Shown here: piece after piece, positions 27,346 through 64,000 of the stretch | Position numbering within the stretch: the stretch's first letter is position 1 | Layout: each line of letters starts with the position of its first letter | Virus record (IMG/VR): IMGVR_UViG_3300013005_004049 | Span: 1 to 64,000 of that record | Length of the DNA: 64,000 nt | Direction: 5' to 3' (one strand) | Source of the DNA: an uncultured virus (IMG/VR IMGVR_UViG_3300013005_004049) | Taxonomy: Duplodnaviria > Heunggongvirae > Uroviricota > Caudoviricetes | Notes under the pieces: model-generated | What the model was told of the DNA's origin: nothing | Database searches by the model: none | What the model saw: only the letters and a program-made list of their open reading frames with translations | Program-made: the position numbers and the translations under genes

Positions 27346-27713
27346 TGTTTGCTCTTGTAGTCAATTATGGCTGCTTGAATCGCGTCTTCAGCAAGAATTG
27401 AGCAATGTATTTTAACTGGGGGGAGTGCAAGATGTTCGGCGATCTCAGAATTCTTAATAGATCCTGCTTCTGCCAGCGTCTTACCTTTGACCCACTCCGT
27501 AACGAGTGATGAACTTGCAATGGCTGAGCCGCAGCCATAAGTCTTGAATTTTGCGTCCGTGATAATGCCATCTTGCACCTTGATTTGTAGTTTCATTACA
27601 TCACCACATGCAGGTGCTCCCACCATGCCTGTGCCTACTGTGTCGTCAATTTCTAATTTTCCTACGTTACGGGGGTTTTCGTAGTGATCTATAACTTTGT
27701 CTGAATATGCCAT
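27342..27713 (-). CDS. iscU: Fe-S scaffold IscU
   Basis: MAYSDKVIDHYENPRNVG, APACGDVM, YGCGSAIASSS, LPPVKIHCS. Confidence 0.96.
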   Translation of the reverse strand: MAYSDKVIDHYENPRNVGKLEIDDTVGTGMVGAPACGDVMKLQIKVQDGIITDAKFKTYGCGSAIASSSLVTEWVKGKTLAEAGSIKNSEIAEHLALPPVKIHCSILAEDAIQAAIIDYKSKH

Positions 27714-27714
27714 T

Positions 27715-28176
27715 TTATTGTGTGTTAGATGTATCGTAGGTCTTGGCAAAGATATCTGCTTTGACAGCACCATAATCACCAGGTCCATGTTTGACAATGT
27801 AGTCATTGCCTGTGGTGTAGTTTAGATTGCCCCAGCTGGTATGTAGTACACCGTCATGGTCAGCAAGTTTTGCTACCTTGAGTATTTTCTTAGGTGTGCA
27901 TTCACCGTCACCGAGATCGTCTTTGTATTCACGGAACTTTTCTGGTGTGATAGGATACTGTTCGCCTTTGGGGCCTGTCATGATATAATGACCCGTATCG
28001 TAGCTAACAGGACCTTCTAGTGTTTCCACTGTGCCAGGGGCTTGTGCTATTTGGTATTTTTCAACAGCAGGCTTTTTGAATGTTTCAAATGATCCTTTTT
28101 CAAACCAAGCATCATTGATTGCTGTTTCGGCTTCAACTATCATATTACTGTACTTTCGAAAAAATATTGAGTCCAT
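27715..28176 (-). CDS. PGDYG-motif family protein
   Basis: TLEGPV, GPKGEQYPI, HGPGDYG. Confidence 0.65.
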   Translation of the reverse strand: MDSIFFRKYSNMIVEAETAINDAWFEKGSFETFKKPAVEKYQIAQAPGTVETLEGPVSYDTGHYIMTGPKGEQYPITPEKFREYKDDLGDGECTPKKILKVAKLADHDGVLHTSWGNLNYTTGNDYIVKHGPGDYGAVKADIFAKTYDTSNTQ

Positions 28177-38087: not shown

Positions 38088-39485
38088 TTATCTTGCCTGG
38101 GCTTTGATGCCAGCCAGCATGCTTTTTAACTTGTTTGAACCCAGTTCCGCTTGTGCTGAAGCAGTCGATTCAGCAGTGTCAGGCTCCACAGTGCTTTTGG
38201 TTTTGATTTGATTCATGATATTCAGTGCCTGTGGACGATGTGAATCCCCTTGTTGATCTTCGGGCAAGTCTGTGATACGCAAACTTTCCATATTGTATTC
38301 TAGATCAACCTTTTGGCCAACCCCACTGCTGCTACGAGTTTTCATTAACTGTATTTGATAGCGTCCGCGCTCTTTCATGGCTCTTGAAGTAAAGATACCA
38401 AACACATTATCTGCTGTGTTAATCTTACTGATACCACCAGAGATATGACTGTGGTCAAATTCAATTTCTTCCACAGCACTGCGATTCAACTGACTTGCAG
38501 TGATCAACAGTATGTTGAACTCTTTGGCCAAATTGCGTAGTTCTTCACTCACATACTTGTCTTTTACAAACAGATCGTTTGGTGATACCTTGGCACTCAC
38601 TGGCATGAGCAAGTCCAGATAGTCTACCATTATGTAGTCTGTTTTCATTCCGGTTTGCACTTGCAATTCTTTTAGATATGCACGAATGTCATTGATGTTG
38701 CTTTGTGCTGGCATGTATTTGATGCGCATTGCTCCGGCCTTTTTACCTACCAGCTTGATCTTCATTTCTACTGTGTCAATATCTTTGAAGATTTCACGAG
38801 TGCTCACATTGGCCAACATGCTATCTATGCGCATGGCACACAGGCCTTCACTGAGTTCTAGTGTTAGATACACACCATTGAGTCCTGCTAGTGACCAGTT
38901 ACACGCAATGTTTTGCATGAACAAGGATTTACCTGATCCAGACCCGCCTGCAAAGATGTTGAGTTCGCCTCGGTTCATGCCGCCAAACAGTTTCTTGTCC
39001 ATGGCAGGCCAGCCAGTACTGATTTGTCCGTTGCCTTCTCTGATGGCCATTAGTCGTCCACGAGGATCAGCAAAATAGTCAGTGCCCATGTCTTTGGTCA
39101 AACTAATCTGCACAGCATCTTTGATCAGTTTTTCCACAGGATTGAACTCGCCTTTTTCAATCAAATCTGCTGCTTTGAGGATGGCTCGTTCAAGTTCTTT
39201 TTGTTTGGTAAAACTTTCAAACTCTTCCATAAACCAATCAAAATGCCCGTCGCCTAGATCTGGAATGCTTCGTAGTTCAACCCCAGTGACTGCTCGCACC
39301 TGTTCTAATGTGGGTAGAGTTTTGTGTTTGTCTGAGTGTTCTTTGACAAACTTGGCCACACTTCTGAGACTGCGGTCAAAGTTTTCATCATTGTAGATGT
39401 TTTGCACACGCACAAAACTCTGTGCGTCATGCAGCATCATTTCAAGAAAGAGTTTTTGTATTTCTGTATTATATTCTTTAATCAT
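38088..39485 (-). CDS. DnaB-like (T4 gp41-type) replicative helicase
   Basis: STGW, GGSGSGKS, TLEL, VDYLDL, ASQLNR, KTR. Confidence 0.92.
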   Translation of the reverse strand: MIKEYNTEIQKLFLEMMLHDAQSFVRVQNIYNDENFDRSLRSVAKFVKEHSDKHKTLPTLEQVRAVTGVELRSIPDLGDGHFDWFMEEFESFTKQKELERAILKAADLIEKGEFNPVEKLIKDAVQISLTKDMGTDYFADPRGRLMAIREGNGQISTGWPAMDKKLFGGMNRGELNIFAGGSGSGKSLFMQNIACNWSLAGLNGVYLTLELSEGLCAMRIDSMLANVSTREIFKDIDTVEMKIKLVGKKAGAMRIKYMPAQSNINDIRAYLKELQVQTGMKTDYIMVDYLDLLMPVSAKVSPNDLFVKDKYVSEELRNLAKEFNILLITASQLNRSAVEEIEFDHSHISGGISKINTADNVFGIFTSRAMKERGRYQIQLMKTRSSSGVGQKVDLEYNMESLRITDLPEDQQGDSHRPQALNIMNQIKTKSTVEPDTAESTASAQAELGSNKLKSMLAGIKAQAR

Positions 39486-40348
39486 AATTGCCTACAAGTA
39501 TAACTGCAAACTGGCTGCGGATCAAATTGCATTTGCTCATCATACTGTCCCAACTGAGTCAACACTTGACTCAGCGTAGTGTTACTTATATTGTATGCTG
39601 CTGAGTCAGTGTGGAACTTGCTGCGATAATAGAATCTATGATCAGCTGCATAACAACATGGTGCGTATTGTCCACTTGCACTGATATAGTGTTGATTGCC
39701 CACAGAACACTTTGGTTGTATCAATCCTGCACCTCTATGCCATATTAAAGTTTGTGACTGCGGACGCAGAGGATCTGTTTCTGCAAAACGATTGCTGGGA
39801 TCTAGTTTTACATCGTGCATGCCTAGATCTTTGGCCATTTGTTGTATGGCAGGAATTTCGTGTTCATTGAAACTAAAAGGCACCACTTTCCACACAGCTC
39901 TAGCGTCAGAATTTGCAACTGACTGTATGCCTTGTGCAATGGTGCTCCAATCACTGTTCACACGATATTTTACACTACTGTCTGGCAAACCGTCGATACT
40001 AAATTCCACAATGTCAGCTGGTGTCAGCATGCCCACCCAGGACTCCCACCAGGCACGATCTCTGTAGCTGCCATTGGTAGTGAGTACAATACGGCCTTGA
40101 TTACTTTTTATAAACATTATCAAGTCACGCAGGTGTTCGTAGTAGATAGGATCTCCTGTGTTGCCGCAGATGCCCCAGGTAAGATTGGCAATGTCCACAT
40201 CCAAGAAACTTTTCAGTGCTGATAGATCAAGATCTTGATTGTGCCAGTTCTTTCTACCAAACTGCTGAATAAATTGAGTGCGTTCACAGGCAGAGCATGC
40301 TAACACACATCTGTTGGTGGGTTCTAAATGAAAGCCGGAGATTTTCAT
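39482..40348 (-). CDS. Radical SAM protein with SPASM/twitch-like C-terminus
   Basis: CVLACSAC (CxxxCxxC), GDP, TNG, FSIDG, PCC..CSYTC. Confidence 0.85.
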   Translation of the reverse strand: MKISGFHLEPTNRCVLACSACERTQFIQQFGRKNWHNQDLDLSALKSFLDVDIANLTWGICGNTGDPIYYEHLRDLIMFIKSNQGRIVLTTNGSYRDRAWWESWVGMLTPADIVEFSIDGLPDSSVKYRVNSDWSTIAQGIQSVANSDARAVWKVVPFSFNEHEIPAIQQMAKDLGMHDVKLDPSNRFAETDPLRPQSQTLIWHRGAGLIQPKCSVGNQHYISASGQYAPCCYAADHRFYYRSKFHTDSAAYNISNTTLSQVLTQLGQYDEQMQFDPQPVCSYTCRQL

Positions 40349-41436
40349 TGCTTGCTCTTTAGTTTAATTTTCACAGGATTTTTTTCTACTGCGTCAATGA
40401 TACTTTTGAGCACAAACAATTTGCCATACTTTTTAACTGCATCAGCCACATCCTTGCACTCGGGGTCTTCCCGCCAGATAGGAAAACTCACTGCCCAGCC
40501 ATATTCTATTGCACGGTTTACCAAAGCTTCTCCTGGCCACACTTCTTTACCACGCTTGTCCACATGACGATCAAAGTCAGGAACCACAATGATATCTCTG
40601 CCAAGATCTTCAATGATTTCTGCCTGTGTTTCGCTGATGTCATTGCTCAATGTAGCCACGCCGTCCACTGCCATGGCATCAAAGGGACCTTCAACCACCA
40701 ACACAAACTTGGCATTGGGTTGTTGCATGTTGGTATTGAAAACATAATTAGATTCGTAATTGCTGTGGTATTTTGGTTTCACATCAGGTGTCACTGCTCT
40801 AGCTGTGTAACCAATCAGTTGATCACGCCAGAAGAATGGTACAATCACACGCCGGTGTAGATTATAGCTGGTGTCCGCAGTGAGATAAAAGTCATACTTG
40901 TTTTGAATTCTTCGTTCATGCAAATACTCAGCTGCTTCTATCAACTGTTCGCCAGCAAGATTCAGTATCTGCGATTCTTGAACAAGTCCGTTTTTATCAT
41001 AGTCAACCTTGAGTCTAATCATAGTACATAGCTGTGCTATGCTTACACTTTCTTCAGGCAACGCACGAGGTTTGAAAGTGATGTCCACTGGTGGTGGCGC
41101 TGCATGGTCATCTGCAGGCATACTTTCTTTGAGTCGCAGAGCTTCCATGACCAGTCGTTGCACAGTGTTATCATCTGCGCCTAGCCATTTGAGTAGTTTA
41201 CGGAATTTGAATCCCAGTGGACGCCCTGGATAGAACCCTGTTTTGAATCCGCAGTTGAAGCAATGGTAACTCACACTTCCGTCGGCGTTGGGCAGCATTC
41301 CACCTCGTCCTCTGGTGTCAGCTGATTCGCCGTTGTGTGAGCAACACACAGCATTAAAACTAATCCAGCGAGAACTGTTCTTGCGCTTGGGCGGCAACAA
41401 GGACAATATTTCCTGCTGAACTAGATTATTATTCAT
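40345..41436 (-). CDS. DNA primase (zinc finger + TOPRIM, T4 gp61-type)
   Basis: CC..HCFNCG, YTAR, VEGPFDA, PDFD, KDVAD. Confidence 0.88.
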   Translation of the reverse strand: MNNNLVQQEILSLLPPKRKNSSRWISFNAVCCSHNGESADTRGRGGMLPNADGSVSYHCFNCGFKTGFYPGRPLGFKFRKLLKWLGADDNTVQRLVMEALRLKESMPADDHAAPPPVDITFKPRALPEESVSIAQLCTMIRLKVDYDKNGLVQESQILNLAGEQLIEAAEYLHERRIQNKYDFYLTADTSYNLHRRVIVPFFWRDQLIGYTARAVTPDVKPKYHSNYESNYVFNTNMQQPNAKFVLVVEGPFDAMAVDGVATLSNDISETQAEIIEDLGRDIIVVPDFDRHVDKRGKEVWPGEALVNRAIEYGWAVSFPIWREDPECKDVADAVKKYGKLFVLKSIIDAVEKNPVKIKLKSKQ

Positions 41437-41520
41437 CATGCAATTGTAACATCAGTGTAAAGAAAAATCAAACTCGTTTTTTTGGCGCTAAATAACTTGA
41501 GCCAAAAATTGGATTAAACA

Positions 41521-41895
41521 GTGGACGACCAGTTAAAAGAATTTATCAAAAAATATCCTTTTATAAGCTATGTGGTGTATGGTGGCAATGAATACATTGG
41601 CATTATACAAAATGTGGATGATATTCTAACCACCGTGTATGATTTTGGTAGCCTGCGCACAGAACAAGAAAAAGCATTGTTTCTTAATCTAGGCGACCAA
41701 TGGTGGTGGGAAAGCAATCGTACCATTCCTATCAATGTGTTTCTGAGGCAGGACTGGGTACCTTTTAGATACTCACTGAAAACCATGAACAGCCGTGATG
41801 TGGTAATCAAATTTGGCCCTTATATAAGTCTCAAAGAGATAGCCGCCAAGAAAACCAAACGCCGTTCAATTGTGTTGGTTCGCAAAACTGATTAG
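41521..41895 (+). CDS. Hypothetical late protein, divergent from primase
   Basis: TAAATA 41489-41494; WWWESNRTIPIN. Confidence 0.65.
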   Translation: MDDQLKEFIKKYPFISYVVYGGNEYIGIIQNVDDILTTVYDFGSLRTEQEKALFLNLGDQWWWESNRTIPINVFLRQDWVPFRYSLKTMNSRDVVIKFGPYISLKEIAAKKTKRRSIVLVRKTD

Positions 41896-42456
41896 ATTCA
41901 TATTCACCACAACCAAGTGCGCATAGGCAACTGCGTGACTTTTCTTGAAATAGTATGCACCGTCGTCGGGTCGTGTCCAAACATGTTTGGCAACTTCGCT
42001 CCAGGCCATGCCGGTTAGATTTCTTTTGGCAGGTCTAATCACACTCAAAAACATAGCCAACCTAGGAATAGTATCCACAGGTTCTGGCATACGCTTCAAC
42101 AAGTCCCAGTGATTGTTCACATGAATAAGTTGTTCAAAAAACGCCTTATCAGTGTTAAAACGCTGCCAGTTGGGGGTAGAATTCATTAATTCTACCAGGT
42201 GTGCTTCGTCTTGCACCTGACGGTACAAGTTTACATTGATAAAATCAAGTTTGAGATATCCACGATCTTCAGCCTGTTCATAATCTAGACTGGCCAGTCC
42301 TGTGAACGGATCTGCAGGAATCATGGTAGGATGCACACCTGTGTTGTGTGCAGACAGTGCATCGTTGCGACGCAAGCTGGCAGGTGTGTGTTTGATCAAT
42401 TGCAGTATTTGTTCGCGGTCTGCAAAGTCAATGTCAATATCTGATTGGAACTTCAT
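41866..42456 (-). CDS. Minimal DnaE (family C polymerase)-like protein
   Basis: SDIDIDF, HNTGV, GYLKLDFI, IRP, YFKKSHAVAYA, all in 196 aa. Confidence 0.8.
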   Translation of the reverse strand: MKFQSDIDIDFADREQILQLIKHTPASLRRNDALSAHNTGVHPTMIPADPFTGLASLDYEQAEDRGYLKLDFINVNLYRQVQDEAHLVELMNSTPNWQRFNTDKAFFEQLIHVNNHWDLLKRMPEPVDTIPRLAMFLSVIRPAKRNLTGMAWSEVAKHVWTRPDDGAYYFKKSHAVAYAHLVVVNMNLISFANQHN

Positions 42457-43154
42457 AGCCCTGCCTCCCCAAGTACATGTTTACACCACTCTGCGTCTGC
42501 CATGTAGTCTTGTAGCTTGCGATTCCAATAATCAGGATCAATCCAAGGCAGAACAACAGCCAAAAGACTTTGGTCAAGACTGCCAAGAAAATCAACGCCA
42601 CTAGCGCAATTAAACAATAGCCAAGGACTAATCCTACCGGTAGTAACATGGTGACAAACACGACTAGCATTAGCATAGCGAAAGTAATCACAAAACCCGT
42701 TTTTAAGATCTGGATGAGTGTCTGCATAGTTTTGCATTTCTTTTAGGCCGCGCTCAAGTGCGTCTTGCACATTCTCTTTGCGCAGATACTGCATGAGCCA
42801 TTCTTCATAGAAACTGTCCTTGCACCAATGATCCAATTTCTTGTTTTGCTTCAACAACCATTCCAGATAGTCTATGGAATTTATTGCACGAACACCAACC
42901 AGATGCCGGCCAAATTTAACAAATGCACCATAGTATGGACTGGTTACAAAATCCTCATAACTTTTTAGTCGAGCACTGCCCTGTGTGACTTCATAAAAGC
43001 GCAGATAAGAACGAAGTCCCAGTTGCACTCCTGCTTCTTTTTCCTGCTGCCAGCGTCTTTTTTGCTCGCAGAGATGTGCTGCAAGTGTAGACTCCTTGCG
43101 GAATTCTGTGTTGCAATACCGACATTTATAACTCTGCTTTGATTCGTTTGTCAT
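42453..43154 (-). CDS. Zinc-finger (CxxC...H.C) replication-module protein
   Basis: YKCRYCNTEFRKESTLAAHLC; GRISPW. Confidence 0.65.
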   Translation of the reverse strand: MTNESKQSYKCRYCNTEFRKESTLAAHLCEQKRRWQQEKEAGVQLGLRSYLRFYEVTQGSARLKSYEDFVTSPYYGAFVKFGRHLVGVRAINSIDYLEWLLKQNKKLDHWCKDSFYEEWLMQYLRKENVQDALERGLKEMQNYADTHPDLKNGFCDYFRYANASRVCHHVTTGRISPWLLFNCASGVDFLGSLDQSLLAVVLPWIDPDYWNRKLQDYMADAEWCKHVLGEAGL

Positions 43155-43593
43155 CCCAACCCAACTCCCGGGCTTTTTTGATAAGGTCTTGTTTGTTGTT
43201 GAGCTTGGCCATGAGTTCAATTTCATCTCTCTTGAGGTGTGGATACAATGCAGCAAGAAACTTCAGATGTTTGTTTTCATAACCTGAATTCTTTTTCTTG
43301 TTTGCAATCCACTGATGTTTGAATGTACCAATGCCTGGGCTCACTGCTGTGGCGCACAGCCATTGTAACTTAGGGTGTTTGGCTATGTCAAAAAAATTCT
43401 TGTTGAGATTTTGATTACAGCTCATCACATAGTAGGCTTGAATATTGCCAGCGGCCTGCACCTGACTGCTCCAACGCAGCATGAGATATGTGCTGAATTT
43501 TTTGCGTTCTTCGTCAGTGAGCTCGTCATAGAACAGAGTGTTCTTACGATCCAACTGTGCCATTTCGTTATTGATATTCAGTTTGTCGCTCAT
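43126..43593 (-). CDS. Putative clamp-loader small subunit (gp62-like)
   Basis: STYLMLRWSS..N..HPKLQW..KHQWI pattern and replication context. Confidence 0.45.
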   Translation of the reverse strand: MSDKLNINNEMAQLDRKNTLFYDELTDEERKKFSTYLMLRWSSQVQAAGNIQAYYVMSCNQNLNKNFFDIAKHPKLQWLCATAVSPGIGTFKHQWIANKKKNSGYENKHLKFLAALYPHLKRDEIELMAKLNNKQDLIKKARELGWDDKRIKAEL

Positions 43594-44149: not shown

Positions 44150-44691
44150 AGCAGTTCCTTGGCTTTGTCATCTATGTAGTATTGGCATCTTTGTTCAAGA
44201 TCAAAATTTGTAATGACAGCATGGTGCAAAGGTAATCTTGGCATTTGATCTCTAGGTCTGGCACTAGAGTGATTATGGAAAAATCCATGTCCAAAATAAA
44301 CCTTGGGCTGCGGCAGGCGTTGGGCCACTGAGTGTAATAACACATGATGCACATGTTTGTATTCGCCAATGGCATTATGAGTCAGTACTAGATCAAATTG
44401 CACTCCTGTGTCGATCAATTTACTCAACACTGCAACTTCATCATTTTGATTGCTCAACGGCACCTTGTCCTGAAAGCCCAAAAAACATGTGGTGATATTT
44501 TGCTGACGCCAGTAACTGGCAATCTCTTGTGCCCTGTCACTGTTTTCGTCGTAGGTAAGATACACAATGGTCCAATCCAGTTGTTTTTGTTCTAGCAAAA
44601 ATGCCTGAGCAAATATCACACAATCGTCAGGATGCGCCACAAGGCACAATCCTTTTTTACTTTTACCTTTGATCCAATTAAACATTACCAA
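44146..44691 (-). CDS. PIG-L/LmbE-like deacetylase
   Basis: VAHPDD, LTHN..GEYKHVHH. Confidence 0.7.
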   Translation of the reverse strand: MVMFNWIKGKSKKGLCLVAHPDDCVIFAQAFLLEQKQLDWTIVYLTYDENSDRAQEIASYWRQQNITTCFLGFQDKVPLSNQNDEVAVLSKLIDTGVQFDLVLTHNAIGEYKHVHHVLLHSVAQRLPQPKVYFGHGFFHNHSSARPRDQMPRLPLHHAVITNFDLEQRCQYYIDDKAKELL

Positions 44692-45185
44692 ACCTTTCCG
44701 TAATCAACTACCTCACACTGTCTGCTGATATCTTTAACAAAGTATGCGCACACAGGATTGTCTCCTGCTGTGAGTGGTACTGCAAGCAACTGCCCGGGCC
44801 TGAGCTTGGGGAAATACCACTTGGTGTCATGATATATATCTACAATTTCAATTGGAAAAAACTCTGGCTTAAAACTTTTTAGTGGATTGAATGTAAACAC
44901 GCTGAAGCCACGATCATTAATACTGGTCAATGGCACAACTTCTAGGTCACCGAAGTCATGTTCACCAATAAGCACTTGCCAATCCACTGGCATTTTGATT
45001 GTGTGTGGCCCAATACGCAGCACCAGAGCAGGGCTGTTGAAACTTTCTAAAAATATCAATGGTATGTAAAAGTAATCAGGGTCCTTAGGATTGCTGTTAT
45101 CAAATACACAAAATCTCAAATCCTCTACTTCGTCTGGAATTTCGTCCATCTCAAACGCTTGATTATCCAGCGTTAAAATTCTCAT
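44685..45185 (-). CDS. Hypothetical phage protein
   Basis: Packed ORF; no function recognised. Confidence 0.7.
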   Translation of the reverse strand: MRILTLDNQAFEMDEIPDEVEDLRFCVFDNSNPKDPDYFYIPLIFLESFNSPALVLRIGPHTIKMPVDWQVLIGEHDFGDLEVVPLTSINDRGFSVFTFNPLKSFKPEFFPIEIVDIYHDTKWYFPKLRPGQLLAVPLTAGDNPVCAYFVKDISRQCEVVDYGKVW

Positions 45186-45187
45186 AA

Positions 45188-45961
45188 TTATTTTCCTCTT
45201 CTTAAATCTTTATTGCAGGATACCTTGATCAAGAATCCTTCTCTAGGACTGTGCAACCTATACTGCTTCAATAACAAATTGTTTTTTTCAAGCCAAGCGC
45301 TCATCAATGCATATTCTGTAAACATGGCCTTGTGATTGATTTGCAACATCAGGAGCTGTGGAAACAGAGCGCCGCATTGTTGCTTTAGATATGTTATCAT
45401 GTTTTGCACTGAGTGTGTATGACAAGGACACACACTGGCTTCTCTAGTTCTTAGAGCAACTGTGTGTTCTGTAAAACGCAGTCCCATGAAATCATATGCA
45501 TGTTCATATTGACTACGATGATGCGAATTTGGGCCAAACCAAGCGTCTTGTGGATCATGTATAGGCAATGCTTGTAGCATACTCTGTCCTTGAGTATCAA
45601 CAAAATCATTGTATGCAAGATTACCAAAATAAAAATCCTTGCTGTCATTGATCACATACCATTCTGTTCTGATCAATTCAGCAGCAATAATCTTGAGTTG
45701 TTGTTGGCTTTGCCAATCATATGCACTCTGTTCTGGCCATATGCTGTTGCTCCACAGGTGTCGTATGGGTAGCATTGAAAATTGTTGCACTACAGATTCA
45801 AACTCAGGCAGATATCTGTAATGATCGTTGAATATCAACAGCACTTCTTCTAAATCATCTCTATTGCAGTGAGTCACCAGACTGCGAAGATAACGAGATA
45901 ACAACAACAGGTCTTTGCTGCAAGTAACCACCACAAAGGTTAACTTGTTGGCTATTGCCAT
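45188..45961 (-). CDS. Glycosyltransferase-like protein (DUF6492-like)
   Basis: WQSQQQLK, INDSKD, FTEYAL. Confidence 0.5.
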   Translation of the reverse strand: MAIANKLTFVVVTCSKDLLLLSRYLRSLVTHCNRDDLEEVLLIFNDHYRYLPEFESVVQQFSMLPIRHLWSNSIWPEQSAYDWQSQQQLKIIAAELIRTEWYVINDSKDFYFGNLAYNDFVDTQGQSMLQALPIHDPQDAWFGPNSHHRSQYEHAYDFMGLRFTEHTVALRTREASVCPCHTHSVQNMITYLKQQCGALFPQLLMLQINHKAMFTEYALMSAWLEKNNLLLKQYRLHSPREGFLIKVSCNKDLRRGK

Positions 45962-47406
45962 TCGGACTTCTCCACAGCAAATGGATAGTTGGCTTCTCTA
46001 TAGAACGCCTTGCGTTTGGTAAGGTGCCGTTTGGCAAATTTACAGGTACTGGTCAAATCCCAGATTTGTACAAAGTCTTTGTCTTCTGCTTTCCTAATAC
46101 CTCTTCCAATAGATTGTATAACCCTAACAAAGCTCTTTCCGGGTTCCACAAGAACCAAATTAAATATCCTAGGAATATTAATGCCCACAGCGGCCACACC
46201 ATAAGTCGCCACAATAACCTTGCCGTGTGCGGTAGCCACCTCATTGTACTCATCTTGACGATCTGTAGCTTTCGTTGCCCCCGATATGAATACTGCATCT
46301 TTGATCCTCTCAGTTAATGCTTGACCAGCTGCCACACGATCAACCAGGATGAGAGTGTTGCCGCTTTCGCGAATACCTTGTACCAGTTGAGCCATGTAGT
46401 CTAATCTACCAGCTGTCTCCAATAGGTATTTAAGTTCGCTTTGATAATTGTTGTACTCAACATGATCTGCAAGCTGAACAATGTTCACATGACATTGTGC
46501 TAGATGACCAGCTTCTTGCAGTGTTGCTGCTTTCAAACTGCCTACTACCTCACCAATGGCACACTTGATTGACATGAACTCATATTCTTCTTTGGGTATA
46601 GTTCCTGTAAGTCCCCAACGAATTGGAATGTGACTCATTACACCTGTCAGCAGAGTTTTCAGTGCATCTGCTTTGGCCATGTGTACTTCATCCACAATAA
46701 CACACACCACATCTTCCAGGAACTCGCCGATGGTAATGTCAGCTTCTTGGTTCTTGGTATTCTTGAGCAACACATTTAGGCTCTGCCAGGTACAAATAGT
46801 GTGCTGACGACCAAACTCTTTTCTATCTCCGTAGAACACACCTACATCTAACTGCATGTTGATATAATCAAGCTCTGTTTGTGTGACCAGACTCTTGTTG
46901 GGCACTATGACTATGGAGCGACCGTACTGACTCACTGCGTCACTGAGCGCGGCTGTGATCACTGTTTTGCCTGCACCAGTGGCCACTTCTTGTACACTTT
47001 GTGGATTCTCAAAAAAGCGATTGATAATTTCAGCCTGATAGTCTCTGAGACGCATGGGTTGGCCTACCATGGGGTGTCCCTTGGGCCAGGCAATATGACT
47101 GTAGCTGTCTTCAGTTATCTGCTTGAATTCAAAGTTGGTTTTATACTCTCTAGTATCATTGACTTCGATGTTGTAGCCTTGCTGACCCAGATAAGACAAT
47201 ATCTCTGGCAATAGATTGATGTAGGTGCTGCCGCCCAATTGGAAAAAACCCACCTTGCCATCCCACCGCCCTAGTCGCACTGCCGGCAGATATCTAGCCC
47301 CAGGAATTTCGTACTTGTACTTGTTGGCAAGCTCTCGCCTGTCTGAAAGTTCTAGTCCTTCGATCTTGACATTGACTTCGTCACGGATAATTAGTTTAGC
47401 AAACAT
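45952..47406 (-). CDS. uvsW: SF2 DNA helicase (UvsW-like)
   Basis: LRDYQ, ATGAGKT, DEVH, GLTGT, QSIGRGIR. Confidence 0.88.
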   Translation of the reverse strand: MFAKLIIRDEVNVKIEGLELSDRRELANKYKYEIPGARYLPAVRLGRWDGKVGFFQLGGSTYINLLPEILSYLGQQGYNIEVNDTREYKTNFEFKQITEDSYSHIAWPKGHPMVGQPMRLRDYQAEIINRFFENPQSVQEVATGAGKTVITAALSDAVSQYGRSIVIVPNKSLVTQTELDYINMQLDVGVFYGDRKEFGRQHTICTWQSLNVLLKNTKNQEADITIGEFLEDVVCVIVDEVHMAKADALKTLLTGVMSHIPIRWGLTGTIPKEEYEFMSIKCAIGEVVGSLKAATLQEAGHLAQCHVNIVQLADHVEYNNYQSELKYLLETAGRLDYMAQLVQGIRESGNTLILVDRVAAGQALTERIKDAVFISGATKATDRQDEYNEVATAHGKVIVATYGVAAVGINIPRIFNLVLVEPGKSFVRVIQSIGRGIRKAEDKDFVQIWDLTSTCKFAKRHLTKRKAFYREANYPFAVEKSEWQ

Positions 47407-50516: not shown

Positions 50517-50688
50517 CCGGCGCAAACATGCGGGCACCTTCTGCCATAAACACACTATAGGCTTCCATTGTTTTTTCACAGTAAAGCATCTTGCCGTGCT
50601 TTTGAATGTCTTGCAAAACTTCTAACAGTCCGATACCCATGAACTCTTGTTCTTTGTTGAGTTGGGCAATAGCTGTGCTAATTTGCAT
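50506..50688 (-). CDS. Small early hypothetical protein
   Basis: Has its own promoter and AAGGAG RBS. Confidence 0.7.
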   Translation of the reverse strand: MQISTAIAQLNKEQEFMGIGLLEVLQDIQKHGKMLYCEKTMEAYSVFMAEGARMFAPVDQ

Positions 50689-50718
50689 TTGGGGCTCCTT
50701 TTGTTTAACTTAGCCTAT

Positions 50719-50747
50719 AGTATAGCAAATGGGCCCATTTGAGTCAA
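50719..50747 (-). promoter_or_regulatory. Early sigma70-type promoter TTGACT-17-TGcTATACT
   Basis: Near-duplicate of the 50488-50516 promoter. Confidence 0.8.
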
Positions 50748-50800
50748 CCGGGCTAAAACCCGCACAAACACTAGGGTTTTTGTTGCAAAAAATGTAATAC

Positions 50801-54156: not shown

Positions 54157-55016
54157 TTGAAAATTTGTAACACTTTATCTTTGTTAGGAAATTCTTCTTG
54201 AGACATCCATTCAATCATTTCTTCGCACACACTGCTTTGTTTGATCTTGTCTGCTTGAGTTTCCAATAGATCTAGATACCCAACTCCTGCCATACAAACC
54301 ACAGTGTGATGTGCTCTGTGAACTTCGTTCCAGGTATTTTCTGGTGCTCGTTGGATAAAATATTCAACGGTGTCTCTGGGCATGAACTGAACTATATTCC
54401 AAAATCCATGATGTGCCATGGCATCAAATCCATCTGGAGCAAGTTCAATAGAAAATTTATTAGCCACTGGTGCAGGTGCAAAAACCATGCCCTGACTTTC
54501 TAACCAAGGCCTATGCACAATAGCAATATAGTTGTCTTCTTGAACACCATGCTCACTGGTTGGATCTAATTGTATATGTGGTGCTTGCAGTGCTTGTAGT
54601 AGTCTACGACTGCGCAAACTAAATCCGCCGTTGCCAACATTCTCACCGTGAGGACGCCACGGCCAAACTGCACCAATGTAGTCATTTAACAAAAACCAAT
54701 CATGCCATCCATCACTTTTGTGAACCATGGCGTCCCATTGCTGAAATATCACATACTCAGTTTCAACATGTTCTAACATGCCTTTGAGCAGGAGATTGCA
54801 ATAGTTCAGCATATTGCCATGCGGAATTTTTACATGCTTGGAACCTGGTAGAAAATCTTTGTCACTGAATACCAGTGCATGCTTAAAAGGCACTCGACTC
54901 AGCGTTTCTTCCATGGCTCTTTTGGCCAAGTCATGATACATAGTTTCTATGGTCACAAGGGTAACATCATTCAAGGTACCACCTGATGGCCCAGATTTTG
55001 CATTGCTGATTGTCAT
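54153..55016 (-). CDS. DUF5672-family glycosyltransferase-like protein (tandem paralogue)
   Basis: QWDA, DYIGAVW, GNGGFSLRS, QED. Confidence 0.8.
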   Translation of the reverse strand: MTISNAKSGPSGGTLNDVTLVTIETMYHDLAKRAMEETLSRVPFKHALVFSDKDFLPGSKHVKIPHGNMLNYCNLLLKGMLEHVETEYVIFQQWDAMVHKSDGWHDWFLLNDYIGAVWPWRPHGENVGNGGFSLRSRRLLQALQAPHIQLDPTSEHGVQEDNYIAIVHRPWLESQGMVFAPAPVANKFSIELAPDGFDAMAHHGFWNIVQFMPRDTVEYFIQRAPENTWNEVHRAHHTVVCMAGVGYLDLLETQADKIKQSSVCEEMIEWMSQEEFPNKDKVLQIFK

Positions 55017-56248
55017 TGTATTTCTACTTTAGGAAAGTATTTGAGAAACTTGTCATTTGGATTCATTCGACGGCCAAGAATCTTCTTTTGAATGTCGTCA
55101 AAGTAATTCCAGGCCAGCGGAATAAACAGTATCTTGTCGCCGGGCTGATATTGATCCAAATGATCAATACTGACCACAGGTATGCTCATACCAGGCGAGT
55201 ACTTGCCCTGCTTGAGCTCATTGTCGTCAATGATAAAATCCAGTTTGATCTTGCTAAAATTTAGCAGAGTGTTGCCTTTGGCAGCAGCACCATACCCGCC
55301 GAGGATATAGCCCTTGCGTCTGTACAACTCAACAAATGTCTTTAGTTCATCAACCAAGCGTAGTGTATTAGCAGCCCAATGAGCGTAGGTATCGTCTGTG
55401 TACAACCCAATGGTATTTTCCATTGCAATAATGTTTTTCACACGCTCAGGACGAGGACGCTTGCTCAACACAAACACATAGCTGATGCCGTGGATGGGAG
55501 TTTTGATAGCGTCCACAAGATACAAACCGGATCGTTCGGCCAGAGCCTTCATGCTCTTGACATTGAAGAAACTGATGTGTTCGTGATAGATTGTGTCAAA
55601 TTCGTCATTTGGAACCATGTCAGCTTGACTGGTACTAACAAACATCAGGCTATTGCTATGCATAACATCTCGAACATTTTCCAGATAATTTACTAGATCA
55701 GGAATGTGTGCAAATGCATTTTGACTGGTTATGATATCTATTTTACCATTGGCAGCATGTACAACTTCTGTGGCAGTATCTTTGTTCCAGAAATCACACA
55801 CCACACGATGCCCGCTGCGTTGACTGACAGGAAACAAATTTTTAGCAGGGTCAACTCCGTAGGTTCTAAGGCCTTCGTCGATGAAAAAATTCAATTGACT
55901 GCCATCGTTACAGCCAATATCCAACACAGTTTCTGGATTATGACCGGCGTGTGAGCGATACAATTCCATGGCAAATTTAGCATACCAGTGCATGTAATGT
56001 AGATATGTTTTGCTGGTTCCACTCACATACAAATAATGCTCGTAGATCAGTTTAGGGTTCACTGCATGTGTGAGCTGTAGGTGATGGCAGTCTCGACACA
56101 TGTTCACAGCCAGCGGAAAATACGGCTCACTGTCGCCGGGCTCTTCCTTGAACGCATTGGCCAATGGCTGATCGTTTAAGTCCAGCATGAGCACTAGATT
56201 GTGTCCACCGCAGGCCAAACAAGAGTTTAATTGAGTAATATCATTCAT
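55013..56248 (-). CDS. NDP-hexose C-methyltransferase
   Basis: CLACG..QPLAN..CRDCHHLQL zinc domain, LDIGCNDG, FDTIYHEH, YGAAAKG. Confidence 0.88.
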   Translation of the reverse strand: MNDITQLNSCLACGGHNLVLMLDLNDQPLANAFKEEPGDSEPYFPLAVNMCRDCHHLQLTHAVNPKLIYEHYLYVSGTSKTYLHYMHWYAKFAMELYRSHAGHNPETVLDIGCNDGSQLNFFIDEGLRTYGVDPAKNLFPVSQRSGHRVVCDFWNKDTATEVVHAANGKIDIITSQNAFAHIPDLVNYLENVRDVMHSNSLMFVSTSQADMVPNDEFDTIYHEHISFFNVKSMKALAERSGLYLVDAIKTPIHGISYVFVLSKRPRPERVKNIIAMENTIGLYTDDTYAHWAANTLRLVDELKTFVELYRRKGYILGGYGAAAKGNTLLNFSKIKLDFIIDDNELKQGKYSPGMSIPVVSIDHLDQYQPGDKILFIPLAWNYFDDIQKKILGRRMNPNDKFLKYFPKVEIQ

Positions 56249-57167
56249 TGTCTAAGATCTTTTCTAGTGCGTTAAAGATTTTTTGATTGTCAAAACTTTT
56301 ACTACAGGCCCACTTAACTGCATTTTCGCAAACAAGTTCTCGCACCGGAGGTGTCTGTCTTGCATAACAACCTAAACATTCCACATCGCTGGTCACAACA
56401 GTAATATCTTTACCAAACTCACCGCTGCGTGTGGGCAGTATTTGCTCTGGCAACAGATGGCTGATCAATGCCACCATTGGTGTGCTAGTGGTGCCAGCAA
56501 TATGAAAAGGTCCACTGTCTGGTCCGACAAACGCACGAGCTTTGGAAATTAAATATTGAATTTCTCCAATACTTAATTGTTCAACCAGATCAATATAACG
56601 ATCTGGTTGTGGTGGCACACGAAAATCGTATTTGGCCCCAACTGCCACAACTTTCATGGTAGGATATTTTTCATGCAAGCGAGTGAACATTGAGCTCCAG
56701 ATTTCCAAATCAATGTTTTTGTTTTCCCAAGCCCAACGACGCATGTGTACCACAATGTAATCACTGTTGATTTCTTCAATCACTTGATCCACATTGGATT
56801 TTTCTTCATCTGTGGGAAATATCTCCGGAGAATGGTCAACTGCCAGGCCTTCTTGGCCAAATGCTCTGTACAAGTAACTGTCCACATAGTGACTGGTCAC
56901 TTGTTCTTCATAGGCATCATTGAGATTGACATACAAGTCCCAAGGATCTGCTTTTTGCATGTCGTCGGGTTTTACCACTTGACTCACATGAGGATTATTA
57001 TGCAATACATCAGGTTCTTCTGTAACCACTTGCAAAAAAGCATCAGGATGTCTACGACGCAGTTCTCGCAGCACAGGTGTGATCATGACTAGATCTCCAA
57101 GTGCTCTACGACGGTCAACCAGAATTCTAGTTTGGTGACCTCCTTTGTATTCTGTTTTAGCGTACAT
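56241..57167 (-). CDS. GT9 (heptosyltransferase-like) glycosyltransferase
   Basis: ALGDLVMITP, NNPH, FVGPDSGPFHIA. Confidence 0.85.
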   Translation of the reverse strand: MYAKTEYKGGHQTRILVDRRRALGDLVMITPVLRELRRRHPDAFLQVVTEEPDVLHNNPHVSQVVKPDDMQKADPWDLYVNLNDAYEEQVTSHYVDSYLYRAFGQEGLAVDHSPEIFPTDEEKSNVDQVIEEINSDYIVVHMRRWAWENKNIDLEIWSSMFTRLHEKYPTMKVVAVGAKYDFRVPPQPDRYIDLVEQLSIGEIQYLISKARAFVGPDSGPFHIAGTTSTPMVALISHLLPEQILPTRSGEFGKDITVVTSDVECLGCYARQTPPVRELVCENAVKWACSKSFDNQKIFNALEKILDNE

Positions 57168-57870
57168 ATTCGCTTTCTGGATAGTTGTTTTCAAAATGCC
57201 AACCCGGAGTTTGTTTGCCCGGAGTGTTGGCTATTTCAAACCAAGTTGGGTTAGCACTGCCAATCCAGGCTTCATGGTCGTAACGGAAATTACCGCCATC
57301 TAGCACTGCTCCGGTGAGCTTGCTAGGAGTGCCCCATGCATACTGCTCTGGAGAAGTTAGAGCAGTGAGTTTTTTGATATAACTGCTCTTGCTCCACCAA
57401 AAATTACCTGAACTGTGCAACCACGGTTGTTCAATGACATTGGTACCCACTAGGTCGTAGCCACTGTCTAGTTTTTCAACACAGGTACGCCAATTGTCAA
57501 TCATCCAGTATTCCATAAAGTTGCGCCAGTCTGTAACGCGGCCGTCGCCCAGCCTACTGAGTCCTTTAAGGTGGAAGTAGAATATATTGTACTCCTCATC
57601 AGCAGCATCACAGTTGCGCTTGACTAGATCCAGTGTAGGATATTCCCACAAATCTGTTCTGTTGCTGGTATGAATAAATTTTATATTTCTTTCATTGGCC
57701 AGCACATTCTGTGCATCAATAAAATTAAGCTCGTTGCCATTGGTGCACAAAAATACAGTTTCTGCTGTTTCTAACAACTCATGCTCGCTGAGTCTAGTCA
57801 ACTGCTCACTCATGAGTTCATGTGCTCCTGGCAAATCGTTTAGGTGCATAAAAATTTTAATCTTGTTCAT
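57157..57870 (-). CDS. Glycosyltransferase-like hypothetical protein
   Basis: EYPTL, YFHLKG, WRNFMEY, SGNFWW. Confidence 0.55.
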   Translation of the reverse strand: MNKIKIFMHLNDLPGAHELMSEQLTRLSEHELLETAETVFLCTNGNELNFIDAQNVLANERNIKFIHTSNRTDLWEYPTLDLVKRNCDAADEEYNIFYFHLKGLSRLGDGRVTDWRNFMEYWMIDNWRTCVEKLDSGYDLVGTNVIEQPWLHSSGNFWWSKSSYIKKLTALTSPEQYAWGTPSKLTGAVLDGGNFRYDHEAWIGSANPTWFEIANTPGKQTPGWHFENNYPESEYVR

Positions 57871-58661
57871 TTTAGTCCTTTATAAACACTTTCAGCTGTG
57901 GCCACTTGGCTACGCTTTTTAATAAGTTCCATGATTTCTGGATTATCTTTTTGATCTTCTCGAGGTACGAATAGTGCTTTGCCTCGATCGCTAGCATCCG
58001 CAGCTGGATCCGTGACATAGTAAACGGCAAGGCTTTGACGCATGACCCCTGCTGGACAAACAAGGTCCTTGGGTAAGCCATGCCACGAATATTGAGTCGT
58101 GTCAAAGAGCACTGCACGGTTGAATCGATTTTCAACTGTGGTGACCAACTCTTTGGCTCTTGCTGTTTCTGAATCATGACTCCATAACTCCAACCCACCT
58201 CCCCAGTCCGCACTCCAATCAGGTGTAATGTACACAATTAGATTGTAATGTCTTTCTAATTTTAACTTAGGATGTATGCTGTAGTCAAGATGTATATTCA
58301 ACTTTCCGGCCTGGGTATGAGCATGCCATCCGCCGCCGTGTAGTCCTACATCTGCCTTGACTTCTGTGTTGCCTGTGATTTTGCTCACTATGGTTTCGAA
58401 CGCTGTGCTGCACAGATAATGCAAAACAGAGTAAGTGGTAGCAGGAAACTTATCCCAATGATTACAGGCTTTTTTGTTTTCTATGGGATTGTTGTAGTGT
58501 GCATTCCAAACAGGGCTGTCATAATCTGGAAATTCTTTTACCAATTGCTGAACTGTTTCTTGTGTAAAGAAATTGTCCATGACAATATAATTAAACGGCT
58601 TGTTGGCAAGAAACTGTGTTTGTAGTGCTTGCCAATCTCGTTGAGTCAGAATATTATCCAT
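57867..58661 (-). CDS. 2OG-Fe(II) oxygenase
   Basis: LHGGG, IHLD, GGGLELW, FNRAVLF, SWHG, RQSLA. Confidence 0.88.
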   Translation of the reverse strand: MDNILTQRDWQALQTQFLANKPFNYIVMDNFFTQETVQQLVKEFPDYDSPVWNAHYNNPIENKKACNHWDKFPATTYSVLHYLCSTAFETIVSKITGNTEVKADVGLHGGGWHAHTQAGKLNIHLDYSIHPKLKLERHYNLIVYITPDWSADWGGGLELWSHDSETARAKELVTTVENRFNRAVLFDTTQYSWHGLPKDLVCPAGVMRQSLAVYYVTDPAADASDRGKALFVPREDQKDNPEIMELIKKRSQVATAESVYKGLK

Positions 58662-58668
58662 GCTTTCC

Positions 58669-59394
58669 TTAGTTCACAATTGGAATTCCATTTGGAGCGA
58701 TGTTTCCGTAAACACCCACTTGGTCAACTTCGTACACATGCTGTTTGGGAATAGCGTGGTATAGGCAGTGTTCAATGTCAGCATATCCGCCCATGCTCAT
58801 GCGTTGTTTCATGTAGTCGCGCCCGGTTTCGTACCAGGCAATCATGTCTGCATGCATGGCTTTGGGCCAGCTGAGTAATCTGCACATGTACTGCATGTTC
58901 AACCCAGTTACTTCAATTGGAAACTGACTGGCCACACTCTTGCCAATTACCACCTTGTCTTTTACTTGTGGTTGATTGTAAAAGTCAATGTCAAATTTCT
59001 CATTGAGCAGATATCTTCCACTCATTTTGAAAATTCTATCTTGATCATCAATTTCGCCAGCATCCTGTAGCGTTCTAAGACTGATAGGAAAAGTAGTTAG
59101 CTCGGTTAGATTCTTTACAACATCCCAATTGTTGTACCAACTTGGATTGTTGTAAATGTAGTTCACTTCGCTGTTGGTAGTGAAATCAATGTACAAATCA
59201 GCAGCGTCCATGAGTGCTGTTTCCACAGTTGAATGAACACCAGCGCCACTTACTTCATTGACTACAATTTTACAGCCCGGCACACGCTCGCGAAGGCATG
59301 CAATGGTATCCAGCGTCATGTCGCGACGCTGTTCCCAGGTATAGATACCAAAGCGAGTGTGTACTGCTGATGTTACAATAAAAGTTGTTTTCAT
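58669..59394 (-). CDS. Hypothetical protein of the glycan cluster
   Basis: FIVTS, FKMSGRY, DIEH. Confidence 0.6.
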   Translation of the reverse strand: MKTTFIVTSAVHTRFGIYTWEQRRDMTLDTIACLRERVPGCKIVVNEVSGAGVHSTVETALMDAADLYIDFTTNSEVNYIYNNPSWYNNWDVVKNLTELTTFPISLRTLQDAGEIDDQDRIFKMSGRYLLNEKFDIDFYNQPQVKDKVVIGKSVASQFPIEVTGLNMQYMCRLLSWPKAMHADMIAWYETGRDYMKQRMSMGGYADIEHCLYHAIPKQHVYEVDQVGVYGNIAPNGIPIVN

Positions 59395-60422
59395 TTGCGC
59401 AACCAACGATCGTTGATCAGGGTCCAGTCCACTACTTCTTTCACACGCTCAGACAGTTTGATCTTGGGAATCCATCCCAGACTTTCTAGTAGGCCACCGT
59501 CCAGTGCATAGCGCAGATCATGTCCCGGGCGTGAGCTGTGGAAATCAACCATTTCATACTTGAGCTCTTTGCCTTGTGCTCGTGCAATAATGTGTGCCAA
59601 CTCAAGGTTGTCAATTTCTTCTGGACCAACCAAGTTAAACTTGGGACACTTGGCACCGCCGTAGTCGCTTTCGTGCTTGTAGTTTTGCAGTTTTTCCAAA
59701 ACAAACATCAGGCCATCAGCCACATCTTTGGCATGAATGTAGTGCCGTGATCCTGCTTGTGTTTTGGTTGGGTCGCTGTGTACAGTAACCACTTCGCCAT
59801 CACGCACTTTTTGGATCACCATGGGAATGTATTTTTCCGGATGCTGGCGCTCGCCAAACACATTCATGGTATGTGTGACCACAATAGGCATCTTGTAGGT
59901 GTTTTCAAATGCCACACACAGTTCTTCTGCAGCCGCTTTACTCGCTGAATACGGATTGGTTGAATTGTACCGATCGTACTCTTTGTAGTTCACGCCAGGA
60001 GGTGCTGGACCAAACACTTCGTCAGTTGAGAAGTTGATAAATCGTTCTAGATTGGGCAGGGTTCTAGCCCACTGTAGCAGGTTAACTGTGCCTACCACAT
60101 TGTCCATAACAAACTCCATTGGGTACTCAATGGAACGATCCACATGTGACCCTGCGGCAAGATGCAGTACATAGTGAATGTCTCCAATCATGCCTGATGT
60201 GAGTGGACTAATTTCTGCTTTGAGATCATGGAACACTGGCTTGACCCGTTTACGAATTTCTGGTGCATGATCCTGCATCATGTCTGCCAGACGATTTAGG
60301 TTTCCACTGAAATCCAATCGATCCAGTGTGACTATGTTCCAGTCAGTTGTGCGTAGAATGCGATCAATAATATGATGCGCAATGAAACCGGCGCCGCCGG
60401 TTATGAGGACATTTTTACTCAA
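59391..60422 (-). CDS. rfbB: dTDP-glucose 4,6-dehydratase-like SDR
   Basis: TGGAGFIA, AAGSHVDRS, STDEV, YSASK, RPGHDLRY; probable TTG start after GGAG. Confidence 0.88.
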   Translation of the reverse strand: MSKNVLITGGAGFIAHHIIDRILRTTDWNIVTLDRLDFSGNLNRLADMMQDHAPEIRKRVKPVFHDLKAEISPLTSGMIGDIHYVLHLAAGSHVDRSIEYPMEFVMDNVVGTVNLLQWARTLPNLERFINFSTDEVFGPAPPGVNYKEYDRYNSTNPYSASKAAAEELCVAFENTYKMPIVVTHTMNVFGERQHPEKYIPMVIQKVRDGEVVTVHSDPTKTQAGSRHYIHAKDVADGLMFVLEKLQNYKHESDYGGAKCPKFNLVGPEEIDNLELAHIIARAQGKELKYEMVDFHSSRPGHDLRYALDGGLLESLGWIPKIKLSERVKEVVDWTLINDRWLRK

Positions 60423-60451
60423 TTTGATTCTCCAAAGATCATTGATGCTAT

Positions 60452-60524
60452 TATTTATAGTTGGCATTTTGAGCCAGTGTGTTTTTTAATACGCCTTGCT
60501 CTGTACTATTAAATATCGTATACT
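60452..60524. promoter_or_regulatory. Divergent promoters: late TATAAATA (minus, 60459-60452) and plus-strand TTGCTC-17-TATACT with embedded TAAATA
   Basis: Motifs read directly between rfbB and gmd. Confidence 0.6.
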
Positions 60525-60555
60525 CTACTATAGATTATTTTTCAATGGAGATCAA

Positions 60556-61578
60556 GTGAAAAAGGCACTCATCACAGGTATCACTGGCCAAGACGGCTCT
60601 TACCTAGCAGAACTACTGTTAGAAAAAGGCTACGAAGTTCATGGACTGGTGCGCCGCAATTCAAATTTTGAAATCATTCCCAACATACAACATATCCGTA
60701 ATCAAATAACTTTGCACTACGGTGATCTAACTGACAGTGGTAATCTTCGTAACATCATGCTGCGAGTACGCCCAGACGAAGTTTATAACTTGGCTGCACA
60801 GAGTCATGTGCATGTGAGTTTTGATGTGCCAGAGTTCACAGCTGAAACAAACGCAGTTGGTGTGCTCAACATGCTAGAAGCTGTGCGAGCACTACACGCA
60901 GAACAGCCTGTGCGCTTTTATCAGGCCAGCACCAGTGAGATGTTTGGCAAAGTTCAGGAAACTCCGCAGAAAGAAACCACACCGTTTTATCCAAGATCAC
61001 CGTATGGAGTGGCCAAGGTGTATGGCTACTGGATCACCATAAACTATCGTGAAAGCTACGGATTGCATGCCAGCAACGGCATACTGTTCAATCACGAAAG
61101 TCCTCGCCGAGGCGAAACTTTTGTAACTAGAAAAATCACCAAAGGCATCGCACAGATAGTTGCAGGCAAACAAAAAGAGTCCATTAAATTGGGCAATCTT
61201 GATGCTGTACGAGACTGGGGTCATGCTCGCGACTTTGTGGAAGGCATGTGGCTGATGCTGCAACAGGACCAGCCCGGAGACTATGTGTTGGCCACTGGCG
61301 AAGGATACACTGTGCGGGATTTTATCAACATGGCCATGGTAGCCAACAATATCAGTTTTGCCTGGTTTGGTAACGGCATCAATGAAAAAGCCATTGATTT
61401 GGTCACAGGCAAGGTGTTTATTGAAGTAGATGAAAAACTGTATCGTCCTGCAGAAGTAAGCGTGTTGTGCGGTGACAGCAGCAAGGCTCAGCAGCAGTTG
61501 GGGTGGTCAAGAAAATATGACATCGAAGGCCTAATCCGAGACATGGTAGCACATGATCGCGCAGAGGCAGGCCTATGA
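60556..61578 (+). CDS. gmd: GDP-mannose 4,6-dehydratase
   Basis: [46 protein letters not shown] start after GGAG. Confidence 0.96.
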
Positions 61579-62342
61579 AAGTAGTGATTGCCACTGGTGG
61601 CTTTGACCCCATACATTCAGGACACATTGCATATTTTGAAGCAGCAGCCGTACTAGGTGATATTCTATTGGTTGGATTGAACAGTGACGCATGGCTGCGC
61701 CGCAAAAAAGGGCGTGCATTCATGCCCTATGCAGAACGCAGTGCAATTATAAAGAACCTGCGCATGGTTCATCAGGTGTTGGAACTACAAGACGACGACG
61801 GGTCTGGTGCCGACGGCATCCGGCAAGCTCGTGCGCTGTACCCAGACGCAGAGATCGTGTTTGCCAATGGCGGTGACCGCAATGCCAGTAACATTCCCGA
61901 AATGGAAATTTTTGCCGATGATGCTAAATTGCATTTTGAATTCAGTGTGGGCGGTGACTGGAAACAAAACAGCAGTCGCTGGATCCTGGATGAGTGGAAG
62001 GCTCCTCGCACAGAAAAACCCTGGGGAGAATACCGACTGTTACACGACTATGGCCCAGAAGCCAAACTCAAAGAACTCACAGTTGATCCAGGCCAAAGCC
62101 TGAGCATGCAACGACATAGCAAGCGTTCGGAGTTCTGGTTTGTTGCAGAAGGGCAAGCAACAGTGTACACTCTTAATCGCAAAACAGATGCAGAACTAGT
62201 GGGTGTGTTTGGTAAACATCAACATATCTGGATCAGTCGAGGTGAATGGCACCAGTTGGCCAACGAAACTGATCAACCACTACAACTGGTAGAAATACAG
62301 TACGGCGAAGACTGTATTGAAGAAGATATTGAAAGGAAATAA
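61575..62342 (+). CDS. Cytidylyltransferase fused to a mannose-6-phosphate-isomerase-type cupin
   Basis: [46 protein letters not shown]. Confidence 0.85.
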
Positions 62343-63916: not shown

Positions 63917-64000
63917 TGAAAAAGATTTGCTTTTATAATCACTGGCACAACGGAGATGTTTTTAGTGGCAAAGGCTACATGCTAGACATCATGCAACAAC
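63916..64000 (+). CDS. Start of a glycosyltransferase-like gene (partial)
   Basis: MKKICFYNHWHNGDVF... runs off the window. Confidence 0.5.
   Translation, partial: MKKICFYNHWHNGDVFSGKGYMLDIMQQ

Follow-up and report, generated by a model that had tools for sequence, protein, structure and literature searches.

A split minimal DNA polymerase III alpha predicted from an uncultured phage and its possible role as a primer extender

How can a phage protein of 196 residues carry the motifs of an enzyme that has 1160 residues in Escherichia coli, and what could it do? This question is raised by a gene in a 64,000-nucleotide stretch of DNA (the window) from an uncultured Caudoviricetes virus (IMG/VR record IMGVR_UViG_3300013005_004049). 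The gene is an intact ORF on the minus strand, the plus strand there being interrupted by stops, and its ATG overlaps the stop codon of a zinc-finger gene (ATGA). A preliminary description of the locus, made from the sequence alone, had noted five DnaE motifs in DnaE order within this short ORF, with all three catalytic aspartates kept. All five were present, and D6, D8 and D71 map to DnaE D401, D403 and D555 (Table 1); the stretch FKKSHAVAYA corresponds to residues 170-179.

Table 1. Features of the locus, in window positions, with residue numbers of the 196-aa protein and their DnaE equivalents
Feature	Position	Strand	Remarks
DnaB-like replicative helicase	38088..39485	-	
DNA primase, zinc-binding and Toprim-type motifs (CCSHN, CFNC, VEGPFD, PDFD)	40345..41439	-	phrog_47, E 1.6e-31
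124-aa convergent gene, phrog_11637, overlaps 3' end of the C-half gene	41521..41895	+	most constant neighbour
C-half of split minimal Pol III alpha (P0001, 196 aa)	41866..42456	-	phrog_11778, E 4.7e-54, whole length
Helix-loop-helix Y168-Y178: Y168=Y754, F170=F756, K172=K758, H174=H760 (steric gate), Y178=Y764	41923..41955	-	alignment
IRPAK (IRP 140-142): R141/P142 = DnaE R639/P640, template contacts	42025..42039	-	profile alignment
GYLKLDF (66-72): K69/D71 = DnaE K553/D555	42241..42261	-	profile alignment
HNTGV (37-41) = DnaE HAGGV motif, start of small palm subdomain	42334..42348	-	profile alignment
DIDIDF (6-11): D6/D8/D10 = DnaE D401/D403/D405	42424..42441	-	profile alignment
233-aa protein, N-terminal C-x2-C...H-x-C zinc finger, phrog_11058	42453..43154	-	conserved cluster member
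GGAGG, Shine-Dalgarno-like, 7 nt before the C-half ATG, within the end of the zinc-finger gene	42464..42468	-	
155-aa conserved cluster protein, phrog_11758	43126..43593	-	
166-aa conserved cluster protein, phrog_11279	44685..45185	-	
UvsW-like helicase	45952..47406	-	

Standard searches did not recognize this protein. Pfam assigned no family to P0001 and no DnaE family to P0001 and 120 homologues, and PDB sequence searches gave no match. Because these searches were blind to the C-half, a dedicated DnaE profile was built from 17 sequences: E. coli DnaE, eight other DnaEs at least 50% identical to it and eight phage DnaEs. In profile-profile comparison, the C-half matched this profile with a score of 52.9 (P 87%, E 4e-6), against 18.1 for the reversed control and no more than 20.8 when the columns were shuffled (15 shuffles). 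After 89 distant representatives had been included in the C-half alignment, the match reached P 96% and E 2.4e-9. In addition, phrog_405, a DNA polymerase family of 1190 positions, was matched by 90 of 92 homologues at E<=1 (best 9.5e-11), and ESM Atlas features included PF17657 in 12% of the members of one close cluster and a DnaE-fragment cluster at 0.91.

Profile alignment placed the protein over about E. coli DnaE 397-420 plus 506-777, beginning near 397 and finishing near 777-780, with internal deletions of about 433-505, which takes away the thumb, and of about 643-740, which takes away most of the index finger. Judged from these alignments, the C-half is a minimal family C core without these two parts. 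The preliminary description had held that the gene was internally deleted rather than truncated and was maintained by selection; internal deletions and purifying selection were indeed observed, but the protein is also truncated at both ends.

Conservation of the predicted active site was nearly complete. Residues D6, D8, D10, H37, K69, D71, R141, P142, K144, F170, H174 and Y178 were invariant in all 178 distinct close homologues, and Y168 was kept in 177. A more distant set comprised the 89 near-full-length proteins among the 150 best 50%-representatives. Here D71 and K69 were kept in 89, D6 and D8 in 88, R141 and H174 in 87 and D10 in 86, while Y168 (61) and R145 (32) were more variable. The dN/dS ratio of the C-half had a median of 0.083 and a maximum of 0.46 in the 39 of 1830 pairs that were usable (0.05 < dS < 1.5; the pairs are not independent of each other); for the 18 pairs with dS below 0.8, it was 0.006-0.194. 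Neither loss of the aspartates nor relaxed selection, both of which had been named as arguments against an active enzyme, was found.

P0001 has the regions of D401/D403 and Y754-H760 but not the R362-G363-S364 motif. In a cryo-EM preprint on E. coli DnaE, these three elements are described as lying within 4 A of the incoming dGTP, and the R362A and K553A variants are cited as inactive and R390A as 27-fold weaker (10.64898/2026.06.29.735100). An N-half with the GRGS motif was absent from the C-half's own 72-kb contig (G000, 18% complete). A 168-kb contig (G001, 47% complete) agrees with the window at 99.98% identity over 12,588 bp and at 100% over 12,966 bp, and it encodes such an N-half (P0123, 170 aa, GVGRGSS) at 27,621-28,133, about 125 kb away from its own copy of P0001. 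Since R362-G363-S364 is encoded on a separate, distant gene, the C-half is half an active site.

The assignment of the N-half rests on profile-profile comparison, in which its residues 5-170 matched DnaE 235-393 (P 94.8, E 4.9e-8). Residues 1-82 alone had no significant match to the DnaE profile, and PDB sequence searches with the N-half returned only sub-threshold Pol III alpha matches (E 0.12-1.6). The presence of a matching N-half with a fixed cut bears on the possibility that the 196-aa protein, by itself or together with the zinc-finger protein, is an active nucleotidyltransferase. The presence of all three aspartates in a single ORF and the ATGA coupling to the zinc-finger gene would agree with such an activity. 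However, the protein has no GRGS motif, the R362A variant of the E. coli enzyme is reported to be inactive (10.64898/2026.06.29.735100), and direct adjacency to the zinc-finger gene was seen in only 38 of the 76 loci with room upstream, so that the coupling noted in the preliminary description is real here but not general. We regard independent activity as extremely improbable. The earlier phrase "minimal family C nucleotidyltransferase" is apt in that the C-half is a minimal family C core, but this core is not self-contained, the GRGS motif being on a separate gene.

The two halves cover DnaE in a complementary and non-overlapping manner (N-half 235-393, C-half 397-777), with the join at 393/397. 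Counted from the first residue of the GxGRGS motif, the stop followed after 35 residues in 78 of 81 distinct N-halves, and after 36 in the other three; the first aspartate of the C-half was residue 6 in 164 of the 178 homologues. The fixed N-half stop and fixed C-half start imply that the cut is fixed and leave no space for an intein. The cut at DnaE 393 coincides with a boundary described in the E. coli preprint, between a palm region (271-393) that is unchanging and a mobile part bearing D401/D403 (10.64898/2026.06.29.735100). Based on these sequence features, it is very probable that the C-half and the separate 170-aa N-half assemble as a heterodimer without splicing.

Several basic residues of DnaE have no clear equivalent in this arrangement. 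The position of R390 was acidic in all N-halves (E in 80 of 81, D in one), R396 coincides with the break between the halves, and the alignment places R709/R710/K714/K715 within a part that is deleted. As a consequence of these losses, nucleotide binding may be weak or may require a partner. K2 of the C-half was considered as a replacement for R396 and was rejected: it was K in 173 of 178 close homologues but in only 15 of 89 distant ones, 38 of which were gapped. The terminal K or R of the N-half, found at the position of N393 in 79 of 81 sequences, remains a candidate.

A fused form was also identified. The 375-aa protein P0286 was the sole GRGS-bearing protein among the best 150 of 516 profile matches; its residues 12-180 correspond to the N-half (P 99.7) and 189-372 to the C-half (P 100), separated by a junction of about 8 residues, and all catalytic residues are retained. 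This fusion supports the predicted pairing of the halves. P0286 is a cluster of one on a single 2,415-bp ENA contig, and could be a mis-assembly product. A metagenome scan revealed no relatives of P0286, and a word-based search that covered 377 candidates yielded no longer form, overlooking P0286 itself.

Occurrence of the two halves was similar. Of 50,697 phage records searched by tblastn, 96 contained the C-half and 95 the N-half; compared at the level of host-genus tallies, the two sets were nearly identical. The C-half was present at >=80% cover in 93 records, and its homologues in Atu_ph07, RaK2, GAP32, PA5oct/Paride and 121Q were 38-47% identical to it. Large contigs selected for the N-half contained one C-half in eight of ten cases, including all five complete ones; conversely, records selected for the C-half contained the N-half in four of five, the exception being 51% complete. 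The halves were never close: the other half was nearby in none of 81 C-half loci and none of 87 N-half loci, and in record coordinates the gap was about 33 kb in RaK2, 43 kb in Paride, 182 kb in Atu_ph07 and 224 kb in Phosso. The C-half family comprised at least 7973 clusters at 90% identity among the 8000 candidates scored, and a full-library profile search yielded 516 clusters at 50% identity (E<=0.001).

The C-half lies in a conserved cluster. The order UvsW, 166 aa, 155 aa, zinc finger, C-half, convergent 124 aa, primase and DnaB is kept up to RaK2, Paride and Phosso. Of the 36 C-half loci with 5.8 kb downstream, 35 contained primase and 32 contained DnaB. UvsW was found in 33 of 43 loci with 6 kb upstream; UvsX and SSB are located upstream in isolates. 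The 124-aa gene was present in all 74 loci with room for it. The primase is indeed downstream of the C-half, but the two are not side by side as had been described, since they are 427 bp apart with the convergent 124-aa gene between them. Of 87 N-half loci, 71 had a clamp-loader ATPase nearby, a count that does not include the short G001 locus.

The four ligands of the zinc finger in the 233-aa protein were invariant in 45 homologues, and residues 4-28 resemble eukaryotic C2H2 fingers, with no named match for the remaining 200 residues. The 124-aa protein contains an invariant WW-ESNR-type motif and has no family name or PDB match. Resemblances of the 233-aa protein to a T4 gp59-like helicase loader and of the 155-aa protein to a gp62-like clamp-loader subunit were considered but were unsupported on comparison.

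The window contains other features of interest. A 183-aa stand-alone exonuclease (6279-6830, minus strand; phrog_255, E 1.2e-49) is a possible proofreader, and RaK2 has a "DNA polymerase exonuclease subunit" directly upstream of uvsW. An intergenic element of about 65-100 bp at 50686-50786, with six look-alikes in G001 (74-98% identity), is possibly a phage promoter. A sugar-modifying and radical-SAM gene cluster occupies 55013-64000 and extends on the contig to 70357; it holds two nucleotide-sugar epimerases, a methyltransferase and a heptose kinase/adenylyltransferase-like gene. Another radical-SAM/SPASM gene (39482-40348) is located between primase and DnaB.

The search for a family B polymerase that the preliminary description had proposed was productive: full-length PolB was present in three of three isolates and in five of five complete metagenomic genomes. 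It was not found in G000 (18% complete) or G001 (47% complete). PHP pieces, whose presence elsewhere in the genome had also been considered, were not detected, and neither was HhH: the PHP and HHH_6 families occurred in none of five records (three complete isolates and two partial contigs), in searches that are weak for very diverged DnaE pieces, as the E. coli DnaE query missed both halves. The finger family was found in these records only over the C-half itself. An exception among relatives is the complete 337-kb phage G009, which has both halves and PolB and also carries an unsplit 557-aa DnaE without PHP (L270:2250-3923, minus strand) that matches DnaE 310-1059 (P 99.9). PolB matches in Paride (OR805295.1, 88906-92683) fall in two open frames of 825 and 379 aa, which suggests that this PolB gene is interrupted or split.

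These data also bear on the possibility that the halves are the core of a larger multi-gene replicase, with thumb, finger and OB parts provided by proteins like the 233-, 155-, 124- and 166-aa neighbours. All four neighbours are conserved, syntenic and under low dN/dS, and the core itself is without DNA-gripping parts. However, none of the four matched the DnaE profile (P below 1%), and the absence of PHP and HHH_6 from the five records, the restriction of the finger family there to the C-half and the full PolB in complete relatives all speak against such a replicase, which appears improbable. The earlier proposal of a catalytic subunit of a split replicase stands as to a multi-gene enzyme, but PolB is the simpler candidate for the replicase itself.

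If the two halves do form a heterodimer, the following mechanism can be envisaged. The N-half would supply R362-G363-S364, and the C-half the equivalents of D401, D403, K553, D555, R639/P640, Y754 and H760, so that the heterodimer would rebuild the palm and form a small DNA-templated polymerase. H174 (=H760) would give dNTP specificity, and R141/P142 (=R639/P640) together with Y168 (=Y754) would read the template. A template-independent nucleotidyltransferase, serving in end tailing, in a nucleotide signal or in counter-defence, would agree with the predicted Pol-beta-like fold and with the loss of the thumb and R390. On the other hand, the equivalents of R639/P640 and of the base-stacking Y754 are kept (178, 178 and 177 of 178), and both genes sit among replication genes, which makes template-independent synthesis by the heterodimer very improbable. 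As a templated polymerase, the heterodimer would be slow and distributive because the thumb, the clamp motif and R390 are lost. Its task would be to lengthen the RNA primers made by primase by short stretches of DNA, after which PolB would take over.

Primer extension was ranked first among possible functions because one gene has primase and helicase as neighbours while the other is found near the clamp loader, and because Bacillus subtilis DnaE does the same job. By this analogy, the two-gene core may work as a primer extender before PolB, a proposal for and against which we find the balance even. T4 passes primers directly to its family B polymerase, so that no need for an extender is evident, and UvsW, UvsX and SSB of the cluster fit recombination equally well, which counts against an extender. 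The same heterodimer could instead serve to fill short-patch gaps, to bypass lesions or, during recombination-dependent replication, to extend invading 3' ends. Besides the recombination genes (UvsW in the cluster, and UvsX and SSB upstream in isolates), the thumbless and clampless build would suit short gaps, and repair is named as one option by Iyer et al. 2021 (PMC7824862). However, the gene is an intact single copy in five of five complete metagenomic genomes and occurs in 93 records with dN/dS near 0.08, a pattern that suggests a core function more than an accessory one, and among annotated genes the closest linkage is with primase/DnaB and with the clamp loader. We therefore consider gap filling or recombination unlikely and prefer primer extension. 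The more specific proposal, that an intein-free two-chain family C core of about 370 residues, cut at the palm hinge, acts as a Pol alpha-like extender in a two-polymerase fork, is put forward tentatively.

The C-half gene family is widespread and has been known since 2021. In the literature searched, to which subscription papers were mostly outside scope, no bench test of a split mini-DnaE was found. If active, a two-chain core of a third of DnaE size would define the minimum family C polymerase, and would be an example of a phage that uses enzymes of families B and C together at the same fork. P0001 and P0123 provide a matched pair from one phage population, and P0286 is a candidate single-chain miniature family C polymerase that, if the primer-extender reading is true, is ready for the bench.

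A split minimal Pol III alpha of group 2.2 jumbo phages has been described from sequence (Iyer et al. 2021, Viruses 13:63, PMC7824862). As in the main text of that report, the system found here is a minimal catalytic core encoded by two distant genes, one for an NTP-binding N-unit and one for a Mg/template-binding C-unit; further Pol III domains were not detected, the context is that of a T4-like group 2.2 jumbo phage, and orthologues occur in Atu_ph07/RaK2-like phages. That text also places a family B polymerase in these phages, which here was seen in isolates and complete relatives but not in the partial contigs G000 and G001. On this sequence evidence, the window gene is the C-terminal unit of the system of Iyer et al., with no difference in kind. 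The cut at DnaE 393, the acidic R390 position, the operon split and the fused 375-aa form go beyond the main text of that paper (PMC7824862), although these details may already stand in its supplement.

Compared to E. coli DnaE, the phage halves share, across two chains, the order and identity of GRGS, D401/D403, K553/D555, R639/P640 and Y754/F756/H760/Y764. They amount to about 366 aa rather than 1160, lack PHP, the thumb, most of the index finger, HhH, the clamp-binding region and OB, and differ in the acidic R390 position and in the location of R396 at the cut. The GS motif occurs in the same chain as the aspartates only in P0286, unlike the arrangement in full DnaE. Cyanobacteria also make DnaE from two distant genes, by means of a split intein; unlike in that system, the N-half ends at 393 without an intein-length tail, and in the C-half D401 is preceded by about 5 residues. 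Among primer extenders, eukaryotic Pol alpha is an analogue. RNA primers in B. subtilis are extended by DnaE, which forms a complex with primase and helicase (PMC3664799). By analogy, the phage heterodimer would likewise work as a second polymerase, distributive and tied to primase and helicase, next to a processive replicase, but B. subtilis DnaE is a full-length single chain that hands off to PolC, whereas the role proposed for the phage enzyme is suggested by gene context.
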